Shown: in pieces, positions 2,399-22,284 of the stretch
How the letters are laid out: every line of letters starts with the position of its first letter
How positions within the stretch are numbered: the first letter of the stretch is position 1
Origin: a virus
Lineage: Duplodnaviria; Heunggongvirae; Uroviricota; Caudoviricetes
IMG/VR virus record: IMGVR_UViG_2648501149_000019
Direction: 5' to 3' (one strand)
DNA: 23,836 bases
Translations under genes and position numbers: made by a program
The notes under the pieces: generated by a model
Database searches by the model: none
Told to the model about the DNA's origin: nothing
What the model saw: only the letters and a program-made list of their open reading frames with translations

Positions 2399-2438
2399 CT
2401 GCTTTTCCCTTAGCCCGGCGGCCTGCCGGGCATATAAG

Positions 2439-3266
2439 TTATTTAACCTGGATAAAGGGTGTATTGGCTCCGCTGGTCATGTATTGCGGCAGTGTGCCGT
2501 TCCATTTATTGATGGCTTCCAGCTCCATAACTCCGGGGTTCTGGCGCAGAGCTTCACCGCGTAAACGAATAGCATCGGCTTCGGCCTGGGCTTTTGTGCG
2601 AATTGCATCTGCCTGTCCGGCAGCCTCCGCACGCAACATGTTGGCTTCCGCTTCGCGCTGTTTTACTTCCTGCTCGCGTTGCAGGGTTTTCTGGTTTGCC
2701 GTGACTTTGGCGTTAATGCTGTCGATAACGGTTGGCGGGTACTCCGGTTTACCTACATAAGACAGGCTCATTACCTGAATACCGATGGGCGTCATTTCTG
2801 CCTGAATATCTTTTAGAGCTGCATCCAGTAGTTCAGATTTGCCACCGTCGATAAATTTATCAGTGGTCATTTTGCTGGCCAGCCGATTTAGTGCATCTGC
2901 TATCTTCTGGCGCAGGTCGGTGTCGGTAATGTCATCCACACCTTTGCGGTAGGTTTGAAACACCGTGGTAACTTTGGATGGATCAACCTTGTAGGCTACT
3001 CCGATGTGGTAACCAATGGTTGTTCCATCGCTCATCTGGAAACTGAATGGATCATCGTAGGTCTTCATCTGCTTAAAGGTCGGGAAGATATAAACTTCAG
3101 TGTTCCAGCCTGTCCAGTAGCGACCAACACCGACCACTTCACCGACGCCTTTGTCGTCGCCAAGTTTGTTGACTTTGATGCCCACATTACCAGGCTCAAC
3201 ACGATCACAACCGACAAGGCCAATGGCAGGCAGAACAATGGCTAAAGAAAAAATAATTTTTTTCAT
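2439..3266 (-). CDS. SPFH/Band-7 (prohibitin/flotillin-like) lipoprotein
   Basis: 275-aa ORF. N-terminal lipoprotein signal with lipobox 'AIGLVGC'. Central region matches the SPFH fold pattern from memory. Ala/Glu/Gln/Arg-rich coiled-coil C-terminus (QREQEVKQREAEANMLRAEAAGQADAIRTKAQAEADAIRLRGEA). Start overlaps the upstream stop (ATGA). Confidence 0.8.
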   Translation of the reverse strand: MKKIIFSLAIVLPAIGLVGCDRVEPGNVGIKVNKLGDDKGVGEVVGVGRYWTGWNTEVYIFPTFKQMKTYDDPFSFQMSDGTTIGYHIGVAYKVDPSKVTTVFQTYRKGVDDITDTDLRQKIADALNRLASKMTTDKFIDGGKSELLDAALKDIQAEMTPIGIQVMSLSYVGKPEYPPTVIDSINAKVTANQKTLQREQEVKQREAEANMLRAEAAGQADAIRTKAQAEADAIRLRGEALRQNPGVMELEAINKWNGTLPQYMTSGANTPFIQVK

Positions 3267-3451
3267 CTTTTATCCTTAGTGAAAGAAAGCCCCTTATAAA
3301 TGGCATAAATGCATGGCGGGGTCAGAAACGCCAGTGCAAAGCCAGAAATTACCGCTACCGTATCCTTCATTGATATCAGAAACGGGACGAGTAATCCGTA
3401 AATGCATGAGATAATTGCCAGTGATATGACTATTCTGAAATAAATATTCAT
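3263..3451 (-). CDS. Small membrane protein (62 aa, two predicted TM helices), coupled to the SPFH gene
   Basis: Hydrophobic segments 'IVISLAIISCIYGLLVPFLI' and 'VAVISGFALAFLTPPCIYAIY'. Stop overlaps the SPFH start and its own start overlaps the upstream stop (ATGA junctions). Confidence 0.6.
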   Translation of the reverse strand: MNIYFRIVISLAIISCIYGLLVPFLISMKDTVAVISGFALAFLTPPCIYAIYKGLSFTKDKR

Positions 3452-3726
3452 GCTCCTCCTGATATCTTTCTGATTGCCTTTTTCAACTTTTTACTGTTAT
3501 TCACGCTACAGTAAATTTCGGCAATCTCACGTGATAACATTATTTCTCCACTGTTTTTATCTATAGCAACGAGACCGGGATTGTCTCGTATGAGTTTCTT
3601 TATCATTGGCATTGCCATAAACTCTTCTGGCGTATAGATGCGTGTATGGCGGCGAACGTGTTTTATCACAGGTGTTTTATGTTTTGACTCAACCTGAAAT
3701 ACATTAATTTTATTCTGATTTGACAT
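3448..3726 (-). CDS. Hypothetical protein (92 aa)
   Basis: ORF in the coupled leftward operon. 2-nt gap to the upstream gene, 4-nt overlap with the downstream gene. No clear SD, so translational coupling is likely. Confidence 0.55.
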   Translation of the reverse strand: MSNQNKINVFQVESKHKTPVIKHVRRHTRIYTPEEFMAMPMIKKLIRDNPGLVAIDKNSGEIMLSREIAEIYCSVNNSKKLKKAIRKISGGA

Positions 3727-3728
3727 AT

Positions 3729-4310
3729 TTAATGTGCCACTGGTGTTTCTGGCATACCATGAGTATTCAGATCGTGAATCATTTCATCCAGAAGAAGTTC
3801 AAGCCCTTCTCGTCCCATAGCAGAGACAATGAAGCCATTATCAGGATCTGCGATGAGCATTTTTTGATAGAGAAACAGAACTCGCCCCATGCCTTCAGCT
3901 TCGCCATATTTTTCAATGAATCCCCATTCGACATGGTTTTGCAGGGCAATGCGAATTGGTTCAGGGTATATACTCATGCAACCATATTTCCCCTTATAAA
4001 TAACTGCACGATATGTAGTCCCATTATCGTTAGGGATATCAACGGTGCCGTTCCTGACTTCCTCTTCATTTATAAACGTCGTAACATACAGCCAGCGCCA
4101 TTGAGCAACTTTCATATCGACGGATAATTTTCCCAGCAATCCGGCATCATCCGCTTCAGCAAGGCACTGAAGAATTCTTAAACCGCGTGAATTTGGATAA
4201 TCATATTCACCATCATTAAGTCGCTGTACGGCCTCGGCATAATCTATGGTTGTATTGCCAATTTTTATACCGTGTGGCGTAACTTCTGGTCGGAACTCTG
4301 AATGATTCAT
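3729..4310 (-). CDS. Hypothetical protein (193 aa)
   Basis: Track ORF 3729..4367, trimmed to the ATG at 4310 (MNHSEFRPE...) preceded by 'AAGGAG' 8 nt upstream. That start overlaps the upstream ORF stop (ATGA). Confidence 0.6.
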   Translation of the reverse strand: MNHSEFRPEVTPHGIKIGNTTIDYAEAVQRLNDGEYDYPNSRGLRILQCLAEADDAGLLGKLSVDMKVAQWRWLYVTTFINEEEVRNGTVDIPNDNGTTYRAVIYKGKYGCMSIYPEPIRIALQNHVEWGFIEKYGEAEGMGRVLFLYQKMLIADPDNGFIVSAMGREGLELLLDEMIHDLNTHGMPETPVAH

Positions 4311-4495
4311 AATGTTTGCTCCTTTGCTGGTGGAATAATAGTGTAACCCGCTCGTTTTACCATCCACAAAAATGTATCCGTGCAGCCAACAAATTCATTA
4401 TCCAACAGATGTTTTGAGTGAATTACCTTCCCATTTTCAATGGTCAACAACACTCTGACTTTTTCATGTGTTATGTTCTGTTCTTTTTCTTCCAT
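4307..4495 (-). CDS. Small hypothetical protein (62 aa)
   Basis: Track ORF 4307..4510. Preferred start is the second ATG (MEEKEQ...) with 'GGGAGAT' 6 nt upstream. Appears to be the first gene of the coupled operon. Confidence 0.45.
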   Translation of the reverse strand: MEEKEQNITHEKVRVLLTIENGKVIHSKHLLDNEFVGCTDTFLWMVKRAGYTIIPPAKEQTL

Positions 4496-4695
4496 TGATT
4501 TATCTCCCATATGCTTTGCGCAAATACAGGTTGGCTATATGAAGATAAGAATCTCCATGTTGTGCAATGAGGCAGGCAGTTTTATACGATGCCTTATTTT
4601 TCAGGAAAGTCATAACTGAGTTCCATCTGTGAATAAAGGTTGTAACAATCCCCGGCGATAAAACCGTAATAAACGTTCAGGGCATATTTATTGTG

Positions 4696-5052
4696 CTAAT
4701 TATTTTCGGCAGCAGCTTTTGCATACTCACATGCAAAATTCAGAATTTCGCTGCCGAGTGTTTTCGTTTCGTGATTACTGGAAATATGTAATACCTGTGT
4801 TGCATGCAATAAATGATAAACATTTACCGCAAATGAATCAGGCTCCAGACAAATGCCTTCATAATCATCTTGTTGTGAGGTTGTTTCTGTCATTGCTCCT
4901 GAAGTGCATGCGAGCCTGTTTTTGACAATTCTCTTTCCTCTAATCACTATATCGGCAACATCTATTGCCTTTACAACCTCCGGGAGAAGTTCCTGGTTTG
5001 TATAATCAAAGTTATCAACATGGAGAACAGTTATGTTTTCGAACTTTTTCAT
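4696..5052 (-). CDS. Hypothetical protein (118 aa)
   Basis: ORF with SD 'GAGGAA' upstream of the ATG at 5052. No recognisable domain. Confidence 0.55.
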   Translation of the reverse strand: MKKFENITVLHVDNFDYTNQELLPEVVKAIDVADIVIRGKRIVKNRLACTSGAMTETTSQQDDYEGICLEPDSFAVNVYHLLHATQVLHISSNHETKTLGSEILNFACEYAKAAAENN

Positions 5053-5180: not shown

Positions 5181-5678
5181 TCACCATTGGTATTGGTTCT
5201 TCCGTAGAAGAGCTTCGCGAGATAAGGAGCAAACTTGTTGAGATGCGTCATGGTGTTGCTGCTCCTCACTTTTTGGTTGCTCCGGAGGAGTAACCTCACC
5301 AGTTAACAGGCACATCGGATCGCAGCCAAGAATATTTGCCAGTGGGATAAGCATACTGATAGTTGGTTCATACTCTCCGCTCTCCCACTGGATGATAATT
5401 TCTTCATCGAGATCGAGCAGCCTGGCGAGTTCGGCTGTTGTTAAGCCGCAGGCTTCGCGTTGGGTGCTAATCCGATTCTGGGAATTAATAGCTAAATTTT
5501 GTTTGCATAAACGCGACGCTGTGAGGCTATATTTTTGAGTTACAGCCAGGATGGAGCTGGCAAGTTCAATTAACTCAGGGTTATTGCTGCTATACAGTAG
5601 TGCACCAGCCCCGACTAAGAGCTGAATATTCTCAAGAGCATCGTGCTGATTTGTTGGTAACCCCATATACGATGACAT
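5181..5678 (-). CDS. HTH (XRE-family) DNA-binding protein with about 70-aa N-terminal extension
   Basis: XRE-type helix-turn-helix 'LTTAELARLLDLDEEIIIQWESGEYEPTISMLIPLANILGCDP' in the C-terminal half. Start chosen at the second ATG (MSSYMG...) with 'AGAGGA' 8 nt upstream. Has its own sigma70-like promoter (5728-5756). Confidence 0.6.
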   Translation of the reverse strand: MSSYMGLPTNQHDALENIQLLVGAGALLYSSNNPELIELASSILAVTQKYSLTASRLCKQNLAINSQNRISTQREACGLTTAELARLLDLDEEIIIQWESGEYEPTISMLIPLANILGCDPMCLLTGEVTPPEQPKSEEQQHHDASQQVCSLSREALLRKNQYQW

Positions 5679-5727
5679 TTTTCTCATCCTCTATAATTGT
5701 TTTGGTGAGTTCGATACCTATGCCATG

Positions 5728-5756
5728 ATAATAGGTTTGCCGATTTTTCCTGTCAA
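5728..5756 (-). promoter_or_regulatory. Sigma70-like leftward promoter (pL-like): -35 TTGACA, 17-bp spacer, -10 TATTAT
   Basis: Minus strand reads TTGACA (plus 5751-5756) then TATTAT (plus 5728-5733) after 17 nt. Located about 50 nt upstream of the HTH gene start. Operator-like motif ATCGA-N4-CCGAT overlaps the -35. Confidence 0.45.
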
Positions 5757-5777
5757 TCGGTTTATCGATTTCTTTCC

Positions 5778-5803
5778 AAAAAAAAGCCCACTTAAGAGTG
5801 GGC
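5778..5803 (-). terminator. Intrinsic terminator downstream of the cI-like gene (leftward)
   Basis: Minus strand forms hairpin GCCCACT-CTTA-AGTGGGC followed by a run of 8 T, about 20 nt past the repressor stop. Confidence 0.55.
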
Positions 5804-5821
5804 GGGTTAAATGATTTTTGC

Positions 5822-6514
5822 TTATGCAAAACGGTGTAGTGTCATAGGCCAACTGACAATTACTTTTCCGTCAATGTGAAGTTGTTCAAAGTCTTCCGGT
5901 TCGATAGCCCAATCCTTGTAAGCTGGGTTGTCAGATATCACCGTTAGAGTATCTTTGATTTTTTGAAGTCTTTTGATGTGCGATGTTCCAGAGTATGTAA
6001 AGGCGTATATACCATCACCATTAAATGCGCGAACTGATACATCTACAAATACCAAGTCTTCAGGGTCTATTGTGCCTTTCATACTGTCGCCGTGGGCGTT
6101 TATTGCTTTGATTGCTGATGCTGGCCTGCCGCCAAAAACTCTTGATGCGTATCCTGGTTCTATCGCTATAGATCTGACAATGTCAGGAAAATCAGAGTTA
6201 TAACTACCAGGTCCGCAACTATATCTGATGTCTAAAACATCCACGACATACGAATCAGTAACCCAATCCTCAGAAATGTTACGTATTTGGTGTGAGTCTG
6301 CAGAGGTCACGATTTCCATTGGGCCAACACCCGATGCGAGCCATTCCGGGTTAACGCCCAAAACTTTTGCTATTTCGACTGTTTTTCTGGAACCGTTGGC
6401 TTTGTTAAGTAGTTGATTGACACTGGACTGAGCCATACCCACTTCTTTGGCCAGCCTACCTTGCGTAAATTTTGCGTTGCGCATAGCTAAATCAAGTCGT
6501 TCTGAAAATGTCAT
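5822..6514 (-). CDS. cI: CI-like phage repressor (N-terminal HTH plus C-terminal LexA-like S24 peptidase domain)
   Basis: 230-aa ORF. N-terminal HTH 'FTQGRLAKEVGMAQSSVNQL'. C-terminal S24 signatures: Ser in 'HGDSM' and Lys in 'IKRLQ'. SD 'GGAGGAAAA' upstream. Divergent from the Cro-like gene. Confidence 0.85.
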   Translation of the reverse strand: MTFSERLDLAMRNAKFTQGRLAKEVGMAQSSVNQLLNKANGSRKTVEIAKVLGVNPEWLASGVGPMEIVTSADSHQIRNISEDWVTDSYVVDVLDIRYSCGPGSYNSDFPDIVRSIAIEPGYASRVFGGRPASAIKAINAHGDSMKGTIDPEDLVFVDVSVRAFNGDGIYAFTYSGTSHIKRLQKIKDTLTVISDNPAYKDWAIEPEDFEQLHIDGKVIVSWPMTLHRFA

Positions 6515-19687: not shown

Positions 19688-20182
19688 ATGGATCAAGAGT
19701 TAAAAAATCTGACGCTGAATATCAGTCAACTGGCGGCACTGTCAGGTGTACATCGCCAGACTGCTGCGGCAAGGCTGCAAAATCTACCCGTTGCAGGGGG
19801 GCATGAAAGCAACCTCAAGCTTTATCGGGTGGTTGATATTGTGTCGGCATTTCTGGCATTACCACCGCCGGTTGCAGAAGGCGAAATGGACGCGCATGAG
19901 CGCAAAGCCTGGTATCAGTCTGAACGTGAGCGTCTTAAGTTCGAGCAGGAAACGGCACAACTCATTCCGGCCAGTGATGTCAGACGGGAGTTTGCCATCT
20001 GGGCAAAAGCGGTCGTGCAGGTGCTGGAGACATTACCGGATATTCTGGAACGTGACTGCGGTCTGCAGCCTGCCGCTGTGAGCCGTGTTCAGTCCATTAT
20101 TGATGATCTGCGCGATCAGATAGCCCTGCGGGTGACTGAAGCAGGTGCGGATGATGAGGAGGAATTACAGCAGGAGGAGTAA
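19688..20182 (+). CDS. nu1: Terminase small subunit (lambda Nu1-like)
   Basis: 164-aa ORF directly after the cos-like site. N-terminal HTH-like 'LNISQLAALSGVHRQTAAARLQN'. Acidic C-terminus. SD 'GGAGCGGGT' upstream. Followed with a 1-nt overlap by the large terminase. Confidence 0.75.
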   Translation: MDQELKNLTLNISQLAALSGVHRQTAAARLQNLPVAGGHESNLKLYRVVDIVSAFLALPPPVAEGEMDAHERKAWYQSERERLKFEQETAQLIPASDVRREFAIWAKAVVQVLETLPDILERDCGLQPAAVSRVQSIIDDLRDQIALRVTEAGADDEEELQQEE

Positions 20183-22284
20183 TGCTGAATCAGGAAACCG
20201 CAAAGGCAGCACGAACCGATTCAGGTTATATCCTTCGCGCACCGAGACGAATGCGGGTTGCTGATGCCGTTGCTCAGTATATGCGGGTGCCCATGGGGGC
20301 AGGGAACTCAGTCCCGTGGGATCCGCTGGTGGCACCGTATGTTATTGAGCCGATGAACTGCCTGGCCTCGCGTGAATACGACGCAGTGATATTTGTTGGC
20401 CCGGCACGAACCGGCAAGACTATCGGCCTGATTGACGGCTGGGTGATTTACAACGTGATTTGCGATCCTGCGGATATGCTGATCATTCAGATGACGGAGG
20501 AAAAAGCCCGCGAACACTCCAAAAAACGACTCGCCAGAACGTTTCGCGTCAGCCCGGAAGTGGTCAGTCGCCTGAGTCCGAACAAAAATGACAACAACGT
20601 TTATGACAGAACATTCCTTGCTGGCAACTACCTGAAAATCGGCTGGCCGTCAGTCAATATCATGTCTTCATCAGATTATAAATGCGTGGCGCTGACGGAT
20701 TATGACCGTTTTCCGGAAGATATTGATGGTGAGGGGGATGCCTTCTCTCTTGCCTCAAAACGTACCACCACATTTATGTCCAGTGGTATGACGCTGGTGG
20801 AGAGTTCCCCCGGCAGGGATGTGAAGGATGTGAAATGGCGACGGACTTCACCGCATGAGGCTCCACCAACCACGGGGATACTGTCGCTCTATAACCGTGG
20901 CGATCGCCGTCGCTGGTACTGGCCCTGTCCACACTGTGGTGAGTATTTTCAGCCCTGCGGCGATGTGGTTGCTGGTTTCCGTGATATTGCCGATCCTGTG
21001 CTGGCAAGTGAGGCGGCTTATATTCAGTGTCCTTCCTGTTCAGGACGGATTTTGCCTGAACAAAAACGCGAGCTGAACGGACGTGGGGTCTGGTTACGGG
21101 ATGGTGAATCCATCAATGCAGATGGCAGTCGTTATGGTGATCCCCGGCGTTCACGTATTGCGTCATTCTGGATGGAGGGTCCGGCAGCTGCTTATCAGAC
21201 ACTCTCGCAACTCGTTTACAAACTGCTTACTGCAGAACAGGAATACGAGACAACCGGAAGTGAAGAAACACTCAGGGCGGTTATCAATACCGACTGGGGA
21301 TTACCTTATCTTCCCCGCGCCAGCATGGAGCAACGAAAAAGTGAACTGCTTGAGCAGCGGGCAGAGCCAGTTCCTTCCCGCAGTGTGCCGGATGGCGTTA
21401 ATTTCCTGGTGGCGACAGTTGATGTGCAGGCGGGACGTCATCGCCGTTTTGTGGTTCAGGTAACGGGCTATGGCAGCCGTGGCGAACGCTGGATTATTGA
21501 TCGTTACAACATCACGCAGTCATTGCGCGGTGACAGCGACGGGGAGAGCCAGCGGATTGATCCGGCCAGCTATCCGGAAGACTGGGATGTCCTGCTGACG
21601 GATGTTTTTCATAAAAACTGGCCGCTGGCCTCCGATCCTTCTCAACAAATGCGACTGATGGCAATGGCGGTGGACTCCGGCGGTGAAGACGGGGTCACTG
21701 ATAATGCCTATAAATTCTGGCGTCGTTGCCGTCGTGATGGCCTTGGTAAACGTATTTACCTGTTTAAGGGCGACAGCATCCGGCGCGCAAAACTGATCAC
21801 CCGTACATTCCCTGATAACACCGGACGAACGGGCCGACGGGCGCAGGCCGCAGGTGATGTGCCGCTCTGGCTTCTTCAGACGGATGCCCTGAAAGACCGG
21901 GTGAATAACGCGTTATGGCGTGACTCGCCAGGTCCCGGCTATGTGCATTTCCCTGACTGGCTGGGGAGCTGGTTTTACGACGAACTGACGTATGAAGAGC
22001 GGAGCAGCGACGGGAAATGGAGTAAGCCGGGTCGCGGTGCCAACGAAGCTTTTGACCTGATGGTGTATGCCGAGGCTCTGGTCATTCTGCATGGATACGA
22101 AAAGATTCGCTGGCCGGATGCACCGGAGTGGGCGAGCCGGGAAACCTGGCTGGAGTGTGTCCAGGACAGTACCGAACCGTCATCCTCACCGGAACCGGTA
22201 TCCACGCCTGTTAAAAAACAAAAACGGAAGAAAACAGTAACTGACGATGTTAACCCCTGGCTGACTTCCGGAGGATGGTTATGA
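20182..22284 (+). CDS. Terminase large subunit (lambda GpA-like)
   Basis: 700-aa ORF. Walker A 'VGPARTGKT'. Size and position match lambda A. SD 'GGAGGAG' upstream. Confidence 0.9.
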   Translation: MLNQETAKAARTDSGYILRAPRRMRVADAVAQYMRVPMGAGNSVPWDPLVAPYVIEPMNCLASREYDAVIFVGPARTGKTIGLIDGWVIYNVICDPADMLIIQMTEEKAREHSKKRLARTFRVSPEVVSRLSPNKNDNNVYDRTFLAGNYLKIGWPSVNIMSSSDYKCVALTDYDRFPEDIDGEGDAFSLASKRTTTFMSSGMTLVESSPGRDVKDVKWRRTSPHEAPPTTGILSLYNRGDRRRWYWPCPHCGEYFQPCGDVVAGFRDIADPVLASEAAYIQCPSCSGRILPEQKRELNGRGVWLRDGESINADGSRYGDPRRSRIASFWMEGPAAAYQTLSQLVYKLLTAEQEYETTGSEETLRAVINTDWGLPYLPRASMEQRKSELLEQRAEPVPSRSVPDGVNFLVATVDVQAGRHRRFVVQVTGYGSRGERWIIDRYNITQSLRGDSDGESQRIDPASYPEDWDVLLTDVFHKNWPLASDPSQQMRLMAMAVDSGGEDGVTDNAYKFWRRCRRDGLGKRIYLFKGDSIRRAKLITRTFPDNTGRTGRRAQAAGDVPLWLLQTDALKDRVNNALWRDSPGPGYVHFPDWLGSWFYDELTYEERSSDGKWSKPGRGANEAFDLMVYAEALVILHGYEKIRWPDAPEWASRETWLECVQDSTEPSSSPEPVSTPVKKQKRKKTVTDDVNPWLTSGGWL

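Follow-up and report, generated by a model that had tools for sequence, protein, structure and literature searches.

Our aim was to understand whether five tightly packed phage genes, the last encoding an SPFH/Band-7 lipoprotein, act together as a single system. The genes occupy positions 2,439 to 4,495, on the minus strand, of IMG/VR virus record IMGVR_UViG_2648501149_000019. We refer to the whole stretch of DNA analysed, 23,836 nucleotides (nt) in length, as the window. An earlier note on this DNA suggested that all five genes might constitute a membrane-associated exclusion or abortive-infection module. Failure of the genes to be conserved together had been set beforehand as the outcome that counts against one functional unit, and co-conservation fails for three of the five. 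Our favoured explanation, held with moderate confidence, is that the block belongs to a mosaic early-left operon. The sole conserved unit is a two-gene cassette, equivalent to gp19-gp20 of coliphage N4, that would form an early cage at the inner membrane.

The layout of the block was as first described. All five open reading frames (ORFs) were recovered in the ORF listing (Table 1). The same five genes are called in the RefSeq annotation of Escherichia coli MS8345, which has a 99.4% identical copy of the window integrated beside the yecN-cmoAB locus. Reading the sequence likewise confirmed the ATGA overlaps of stop and start codons (4307-4310, 3448-3451 and 3263-3266) and the 2 nt that separate two of the genes at 3727-3728. 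Note that overlapping stop and start codons are usual across phage early operons and, by themselves, are no sign of a common function.

Co-occurrence was tabulated for 80 IMG/VR contigs in which the SPFH protein is 97-100% identical to that of the window. The gene directly upstream, for a 62-amino acid (aa) protein with two transmembrane (TM) helices, was found in every untruncated locus. The 92-aa gene was present in about 8 of the 80 contigs and the 193-aa gene was absent from about a third. The first gene of the block, for the other 62-aa protein (4307-4495), has alleles of two divergent types, and these follow the 193-aa gene and not the SPFH gene. Since allele type follows presence of the 193-aa gene, these two genes (3729-4495) may be a separate linked pair. 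Similarly, Stx2 phages have only the SPFH and two-TM genes in common with the window's five. Phage phiP27 lacks the 92-aa gene. In its slot, at ~3515-3622 on the minus strand of our phiP27 locus (L002), lies a 35-aa ORF (MKSNRELNRVKLILILATVLTLTEIIIFFITLSVG) that is unannotated and has a single hydrophobic helix. Hence, the slot just upstream of the two conserved genes is variable.

The genes also differ in taxonomic range. At 50% identity, the SPFH family resolves into 3,004 representatives across phyla. By comparison, the 193-aa family comprises 37 clusters, essentially all from Escherichia. The 92-aa protein occurs in one phage record, ASU11, which itself lacks the SPFH pair. The family of the first 62-aa protein (phrog_340, matched at 1.3e-22) is found in 26 phage records, all for temperate phages of E. 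coli or Salmonella. These include ASU11 and also Stx1a phages, the latter not being among the SPFH matches listed. The genes thus dissociate in both directions, and some have a range orders of magnitude wider than others. By the outcome set beforehand, a unit of all five fails.

The earlier note had also remarked that the three upstream proteins have no recognisable domains, and this held. Searches of Pfam, NCBIfam and PDB sequences returned no match for the first 62-aa protein or the 193-aa protein, and searches of Pfam, PHROG, NCBIfam and PDB returned none for the 92-aa protein. The AlphaFold model of the 193-aa protein (pLDDT 86.6, pTM 0.84) had no fold match in the PDB. The 193-aa gene thus far appears to be an Escherichia-restricted phage ORFan, independent of the cassette, and the 62-aa gene appears to be cargo of enterobacterial lambdoid early-left operons. 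Together with the 92-aa gene, they seem best described as narrow-range early-left cargo.

Phage ASU11 defines the edges of the conserved unit. It is syntenic with the window, its gene order being int, xis, DUF4222, DUF5406, 92-aa, 193-aa, 62-aa, 118-aa, CII-like and CI. In this phage, the start of the DUF5406 gene abuts the stop of the 92-aa gene (junction 2365-2382 of our ASU11 locus, L147). The missing segment is exactly window positions 2399-3447, or 1,049 bp, and holds a hairpin, the SPFH gene and the two-TM gene. Both junctions fall at gene boundaries. Hence, the difference is one of clean presence or absence and marks out the cassette, and the two genes are gained and lost together as an indel.

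The hairpin starts 7 nt past the SPFH stop codon and has a 7-bp stem (GCCCGGC/GCCGGGC) with a 5-nt loop and no T-run. It is contained in an 89-nt stretch, downstream of the stop, with a predicted structure of -19.3 kcal/mol. A GC-rich stem-loop is the usual sequel to the SPFH stop codon, and is also found in phage P88 and, with T-runs resembling a canonical terminator, in N4, Yersinia and Salmonella. It is the feature that is conserved; the sequences differ. The conserved unit is a cassette of ~1.05 kb (2399-3451), made up of the two-TM protein, the SPFH lipoprotein and the 3' hairpin.

We turned to the association between the two genes elsewhere. The two-TM partner adjoins the SPFH start in phage backbones that have nothing else in common with the window. 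In the P2-like phage P88, the partner is 67 aa in length, overlaps the SPFH gene by an ATGA, and is in the early operon between cox and gene A. In a P1-like phage, a 78-aa partner, with a 20-nt overlap, lies between dmt and ban. The N4 genes, encoding gp19 (68 aa) and gp20, overlap by 8 nt. In Burkholderia phage phi1026b, gp49 and a lipoprotein make up the partner/SPFH pair. The N4-like phages, and Klebsiella myoviruses of roughly 145 kb, have TM homologues beside SPFH, and a Salmonella prophage has the pair between the genes for a ssDNA-binding protein and DNA Pol A. To put numbers on this linkage, we scored loci from species-representative genomes (53 loci, of which 52 were scorable; 7 sequences formed the genome-scan query). 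The partner accompanied 28 of the 52 SPFH genes and 9 of 339 control long ORFs in the same loci. The odds ratio is ~43, with a Fisher p of ~6e-21 that is generous, since the loci are not phylogenetically independent. A partner upstream of, or fused to, SPFH was detected in Enterobacterales, Xenorhabdus, Morganella, Sutterella, Muribaculaceae, Saprospirales and Bacteroidales, and in variant form in Binataceae.

All partners have the same architecture: a first TM helix, an invariant proline in a P-x-L-x-S turn, and a second TM helix with a conserved glycine. In the window, the partner matches phrog_1130 ‘membrane protein’ (1.5e-23) and its two hydrophobic helices are separated by the turn VPFLISMKD. 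The P-x-L-x-S motif aligns with that of N4 gp19 and 27 other partners or fusion N-termini. We also considered whether the partner could be an NfeD protein. This was rejected, as there was no domain match and the protein is too short.

Fusions of the two genes are the strongest evidence for a two-gene unit. Extensions of 55-120 aa are found at the N-terminus of 17 of 150 SPFH family representatives. In at least 12 of these 17, the extension is the same two-TM module, with its turn, followed by a signal-like helix, the lipobox cysteine and the SPFH domain. Examples are fusion P0002, from a P1-like element, and fusion P0344, from the replication region of a lytic-phage-like contig. Hence, the pair is linked across unrelated phage backbones and bacterial phyla, and is fused in at least 12 lineages. 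The fusions also bear on topology. With two TM helices and then a third, we infer that the SPFH domain would be on the periplasmic face of the inner membrane. By the same logic, both ends of the partner would be cytoplasmic and the conserved turn would sit at the periplasmic interface.

Some copies have lost the partner. In Shigella flexneri and E. coli chromosomes (loci L086 and L087, ~5600-6000), an IS3/IS600 element stands in its place, and the SPFH gene directly downstream of the element is 96% identical. The SPFH cluster of this type (P0001) has 1,366 member sequences. Hence, the orphaned SPFH copy is widespread in Shigella and E. coli. Separately, Luteibacter sp. (L143, 6735-7852) has a two-TM/SPFH pair overlapping by 4 nt, in which the two-TM ORF is 89 aa in length, near genes for UvrB, GspH and a PI-PLC-like protein. 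The context is apparently chromosomal and non-phage, so the cassette is not exclusive to phages.

The SPFH assignment of the 275-aa protein was borne out by several approaches. Residues 22-208 match Pfam Band_7 (PF01145) at 1.1e-30, with 107.5 bits against a cut-off of 23.6, and the protein matches phrog_200 ‘lipoprotein’ at 1.8e-114. The AlphaFold (AF2) model, computed from an alignment of 83 sequences, reached a mean pLDDT of 82.5. It consists of an alpha/beta SPFH domain, then a single 65-residue helix (178-242), in agreement with the coiled-coil tail that had been noted. In Foldseek searches, the best solved-structure matches were full-length, cage-forming SPFH proteins, namely prohibitin, HflK/C, erlin, stomatin, flotillin and QmcA, with E values from 4e-14 to 1e-7. 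The domain score above threshold, the alpha/beta fold with a long helix, and the predicted N-terminal membrane attachment are all as expected of the SPFH superfamily.

The predicted membrane attachment is by acylation. The protein begins MKKIIFSLAIVLPAIGLVGC, followed by DR, and so has a signal peptide with the expected lipobox (LVGC). Attachment would be via Cys20. A cysteine stands immediately ahead of the SPFH body in 119 of 128 family representatives. Hence, lipid anchoring is a predicted hallmark of the family. In E. coli, according to the ‘+2 rule’, aspartate after the acylated cysteine favours retention of a lipoprotein in the inner membrane. Asp21 is at this position in the window protein, so inner-membrane retention is favoured. 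Note that the +2 residue is variable across the family. Base composition was also considered, as a marker of foreign origin, and set aside. While the SPFH gene has a GC content of 46-55%, compared to 37-44% upstream, the two-TM partner gene is AT-rich, and the contrast is not decisive.

The SPFH lipoprotein was found, using tblastn, in 383 phage records of ~50,700 deposited phage genomes. Many carriers are strictly lytic. These include N4 and N4-like phages, Vi01-like and other large myoviruses, LUZ24-like Pseudomonas podoviruses, phiCbK-like Caulobacter phages, crAss-like phages, Lak megaphages, Myxococcus phage Mx1 and a jumbo phage. Temperate carriers include phi1026b, SSU5, P1-like, P2-like and Stx phages. 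In all five phage contexts that we examined, the pair or fusion is co-directional with early or replication genes and is outside lysis and structural modules. In N4, for instance, the pair is on the left arm, just past the RNAPII genes. The N4 gene directly upstream, gp18 (3407-3721 of L139), is annotated ‘superinfection exclusion; similar to P22 gp17’. Its adjacency to gp19-gp20 may be coincidence.

In P1-like variants, the SPFH pair is an insertion at a variable tRNA-to-ban locus, where reference P1 (L085) has tciABC. We considered P1 plp and upl as named equivalents of the pair and rejected both. Plp of reference P1, with 125 aa, is an unrelated ORF from the tRNA region, as is Upl. Both plp and upl look like dubious ORFs overlapping that region.

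The window corresponds to the left arm of a lambdoid prophage resembling phiP27, from integrase (1-1314) to large terminase (20182-22284). Beyond the repressor gene and a terminator-like hairpin is a sigma-70-like site, the strongest in the region by consensus scan (Table 1). Downstream, in order, are a gene for a helix-turn-helix (HTH) ‘CII-like’ protein, the 118-aa gene, the five ORFs, the DUF5406 and DUF4222 genes, xis and int. With the repressor gene, hairpin and strong promoter-like site before it, and xis-int after it, the five-ORF block is part of an early-left operon, in the location given by the earlier note. The site at 5756-5728 probably drives the whole block. There was no promoter-like site directly upstream of the two-TM and SPFH pair, in the window or phiP27, in scans that are crude and that a weak internal promoter could escape; promoter and terminator calls are consensus matches only. 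On this basis, the idea that the cassette has a promoter of its own was dropped.

Table 1. Features of the early-left region and of related loci discussed in the text.
Feature	Position	Strand	Remarks
Repressor gene (HTH + Peptidase_S24)	5822-6514	minus	
Terminator-like hairpin 3' of repressor gene	5803-5786	minus	consensus scan
Sigma-70-like promoter, TTGACA-17-TATTAT, 11/12	5756-5728	minus	consensus scan; probable PL-like early-left promoter
62-aa ORF	4307-4495	minus	ATG at 4495; phrog_340, unknown function
193-aa ORF	3729-4310	minus	ATG at 4310; phrog_1515, unknown function
92-aa ORF	3448-3726	minus	sporadic cargo, co-transcribed here, translationally coupled
62-aa two-TM protein	3263-3451	minus	cassette core gene 1; phrog_1130; N4 gp19 homologue
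275-aa SPFH/Band-7 lipoprotein	2439-3266	minus	cassette core gene 2; phrog_200; N4 gp20 homologue
GC-rich hairpin	2413-2431	minus	probable 3' boundary of cassette
Cassette in P1-like phage MH445380 (L004)	3967-5011		
Cytophagales/Bacteroidia loci with mature N-terminus CTRIDAG and no two-TM ORF upstream			L109, L111, L117-L121, L123-L128, L130, L132, L133, L137, L138

Two genes elsewhere in the window deserve mention. A 395-aa DUF4236 gene (12688-13875, minus) is oriented against its surroundings and separates the replication region from the late region, a classic moron position, and its product had no PADLOC match. A DNA methyltransferase gene (14588-15526, plus) matches PADLOC MTase_II at 2e-131; no restriction enzyme was found among the four neighbouring ORFs scanned.

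How might the cassette work? We propose that the lipoprotein would be exported, lipid-modified at Cys20, and held at the periplasmic face of the inner membrane. Here, the SPFH domain and long helix could assemble into a ring or cage, as for HflK/C, prohibitin and stomatin. The partner would insert with both ends in the cytoplasm and its P-x-L-x-S turn at the periplasmic interface, where it could anchor to, or be enclosed by, the base of the ring. The pair would be made soon after infection, or induction, when transcription from the repressor-controlled early promoter reads through, and would fence off a patch of inner membrane. Our best guess is that the pair would benefit the phage by protecting or insulating the inner membrane of the infected cell, for example by excluding superinfecting DNA during the lytic cycle. 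Exclusion in this form may occur; the lysogen form of the exclusion or abortive-infection module, as first suggested, is weakened by the lytic carriers, by the failure to find a promoter-like site directly before the pair in the window or phiP27, and by the location of the pair or fusion in an early or replication operon in the five phage contexts examined. A more ambitious version is that the cassette represents a widespread, undescribed, phage SPFH cage with a dedicated two-TM subunit and a role in conflict, be it exclusion, shielding against depolarising abortive-infection (Abi) effectors, or FtsH control. We offer this tentatively and consider it doubtful as a whole.

Several observations weigh against an early inner-membrane cage built by the pair. 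The loci in our linkage survey are phylogenetically related, which the p-value ignores. The partner is not universal, since ~20 Bacteroidota loci, a Cytophagales-type subclade with the mature N-terminus CTRIDAG, have no partner, and Pseudomonas phage TL has a different ORF upstream of SPFH. The CTRIDAG subclade may be a chromosomal branch that does without the partner. At its 3' end the cassette has a hairpin or terminator, as a moron would. Ring formation, partner contact, localisation and timing are all deduced, and no experiment on the pair was found in the literature searched. Finally, the possibly related protein PM0222, of Pasteurella multocida, has been seen in lysogen cultures and outer-membrane vesicles (PMC9872710). 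This detection is a poor fit to strict early-only expression or strict inner-membrane retention.

The literature searched contained no functional work on the two-TM/SPFH pair, phage SPFH lipoproteins or N4 gp19/gp20, apart from that on PM0222, which was the only phage-borne SPFH protein found to have been studied experimentally (PMC9872710). In a 2026 paper, the reason for an SPFH lipoprotein in a phage genome was called unclear (PMC13239085). In line with the earlier remark that the block was not recognised as a named defence system, a search of PADLOC-DB v2 (a library dating from 2023) gave no matching family at E <= 0.1 for any of the five proteins. When neighbouring proteins were included as candidates, PADLOC returned only HTH matches, on the neighbouring regulator. 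No sequence or fold link from the block to known superinfection exclusion (Sie) or Abi proteins was found, and no literature on such a link was found either.

Among the alternatives, that which fares best is a moron, expressed in lysogens for superinfection exclusion or defence, with a periplasmic lipoprotein that blocks phage DNA entry. The lipoproteins Llp (T5), Cor (phi80/N15) and Ltp (TP-J34) block entry of other phages' DNA, and periplasmic lipoproteins are a recurring solution to exclusion. The cassette would suit this role: it behaves as a discrete mobile unit, carries a 3' hairpin or terminator of its own, and is common in prophages and plasmid-prophages. However, the pair is also present in N4, N4-like phages and the roughly 145-kb Klebsiella myoviruses, and the SPFH gene in phiCbK-like, crAss-like and Lak phages. 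Since phages such as N4 are strictly lytic, lysogen-specific defence is unlikely. Furthermore, in lambdoid, P2-like and P1-like backbones the pair is inside repressor-controlled early operons, no promoter-like site precedes it in the window or phiP27, and no PADLOC model matches. Detection of the possibly related Pasteurella prophage protein in lysogen cultures is a point in its favour (PMC9872710). Overall, we judge this explanation unlikely.

A somewhat less probable idea is that the cassette is a phage analogue of HflK/C that captures or modulates FtsH from the periplasm, and so stabilises phage proteins. It would then be a counterpart of lambda cIII, which is located at the same place in the PL operon. 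The predicted topology is as for HflK/C and prohibitins, with SPFH on the non-cytoplasmic face. FtsH is universal, consistent with the very wide host range, and the window also encodes a CII-like regulator. HflK was the best PDB sequence match of the 275-aa protein (E = 0.001), prohibitin was also among the best, and both are among the top fold matches. While the best NCBIfam matches were likewise HflC (TIGR01932) and HflK (TIGR01933), they scored just 24.6 and 22.7 bits, against cut-offs of 134.4 and 159.4. Similarly, when the SPFH family profile was compared using hhalign, HflC (4.9e-6) and HflK (1.3e-5) were no closer than the cytoplasm-facing QmcA (6.3e-8); YqiK gave 7.7e-3. The cassette also has a single SPFH gene, not a K/C pair, and a lipid anchor in place of a TM helix. 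Many carriers are lytic, and make no lysis-lysogeny decision.

It is very unlikely that the lipoprotein is a lysogenic-conversion or virulence factor that acts on the animal host, being released in vesicles and stimulating TLR2. This is the role reported for PM0222, which is found in outer-membrane vesicles and whose deletion attenuates virulence (PMC9872710). Relatives of the window are frequent in pathogenic E. coli and Stx phages. However, PM0222 is only possibly related to the window family, and any triacylated lipoprotein stimulates TLR2. The family is also found in phages of Caulobacter, Ruegeria, Myxococcus and Agrobacterium, and in lytic phages. Hence, with carriage by phages of environmental bacteria and by lytic phages, an effect on animals cannot explain conservation.

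Least credible of all is that the five genes act jointly, when expressed by the prophage, as an exclusion or abortive-infection system at the membrane: though the five ORFs are tightly coupled for translation, sit where lambdoid accessory genes typically do, and encode no protein of known unrelated function, such coupling is the norm in early operons and no proof of shared function, three genes lack co-conservation with the remaining two, whichever way this is examined, their ranges are orders of magnitude apart, and PADLOC finds no match.

We thus return to the early inner-membrane cage. In terms of benefit to the phage, we rank insulation of the envelope, or exclusion, during infection above exclusion by the lysogen, followed by FtsH modulation and then virulence, which is least general. 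The wider interest is as follows. HflK/C, prohibitins, stomatins and flotillins are cellular membrane organisers, and HflK/C were discovered via their effect on lambda lysogeny. Phages carry an SPFH protein of their own with a fixed two-TM partner, and the SPFH gene is found across very different types of phage and across host phyla. If the pair does form a periplasmic cage, this would be a new means by which viruses remodel the inner membrane of bacteria. What needs testing is two genes, ~1 kb in all, and not five, and N4 gp19-gp20 is a tractable model. There is also a general caution. Coupled early operons are not systems per se; the overlaps here join genes of very unequal evolutionary range.

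The block is best recast as carrying one copy of a widespread, uncharacterised phage cassette, of which N4 gp19-gp20 is the best-known instance. Both genes are present in N4, where their order is unchanged and they again overlap, and they encode proteins of 68 aa (gp19) and 278 aa (gp20). In the window, as expected for a pair of this type, a phrog_200 lipoprotein gene has a phrog_1130 partner gene upstream on the same strand. The 275-aa protein is 62% identical to gp20 over residues 2-275, and gp20 also has a lipobox. Like the window partner, gp19 has two TM helices, with the turn LLPSMVSA compared with VPFLISM. Both pairs are in an early region, outside the lysis cassette. The differences are that N4 is strictly lytic, its lipobox +2 residue is tyrosine rather than aspartate, and a canonical terminator follows the pair. 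Since no published function for gp19/gp20 was found, the N4 comparison names the cassette without explaining it.

The cassette also invites comparison with envelope proteins of other phages. Imm and Sp of the lytic phage T4 are made early and block DNA entry by later-arriving phages. Like these, and T5 Llp, phi80/N15 Cor and P22 SieA, the two cassette proteins are small and predicted to be envelope-located, and some proteins on both sides are lipoproteins. The timing and location of T4 Imm/Sp fit those we infer for the window cassette. However, there is no sequence or fold relation to any of these proteins, and none has an SPFH domain, so the likeness is functional speculation. PM0222, which is possibly related, is another prophage-encoded SPFH protein of similar size. 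It is described as an HflK/C-like protein of 25-35 kDa, from a prophage island, and has been studied only as a virulence factor and TLR1/2 agonist (PMC9872710).

Cellular SPFH systems provide the remaining parallels. E. coli HflK/HflC, like the window lipoprotein, have an SPFH domain and a long helix, predicted to be on the periplasmic face of the inner membrane. They differ in being a heteromeric pair with N-terminal TM helices, whereas the window has one SPFH gene and a lipid anchor. We rejected the label ‘HflK/C-like’ on the basis of sequence, given the NCBIfam scores far below cut-offs and a profile comparison no closer than for QmcA. The 275-aa protein is a member of the SPFH superfamily but not an HflK/C protein. 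The SPFH-NfeD operons (QmcA-YbbJ and YqiK-YqiJ; PDB 8z5g) also combine an SPFH gene with one for a small membrane partner, and QmcA is both a significant fold match and the best profile match among four E. coli SPFH proteins. The window has the adjacent, co-transcribed, partner gene (ATGA at 3263-3266) but not the NfeD OB-fold domain. The NfeD systems have an OB-fold partner and a cytoplasmic SPFH domain, whereas the phage-borne cassette pairs a 62-aa protein, without NfeD, with a lipid-anchored and predicted periplasmic SPFH protein. Even so, no nearer precedent than these operons was found for an SPFH cage that encloses a membrane partner. The pairing of SPFH with such a partner is an already known theme, and the window cassette is a variant of it.

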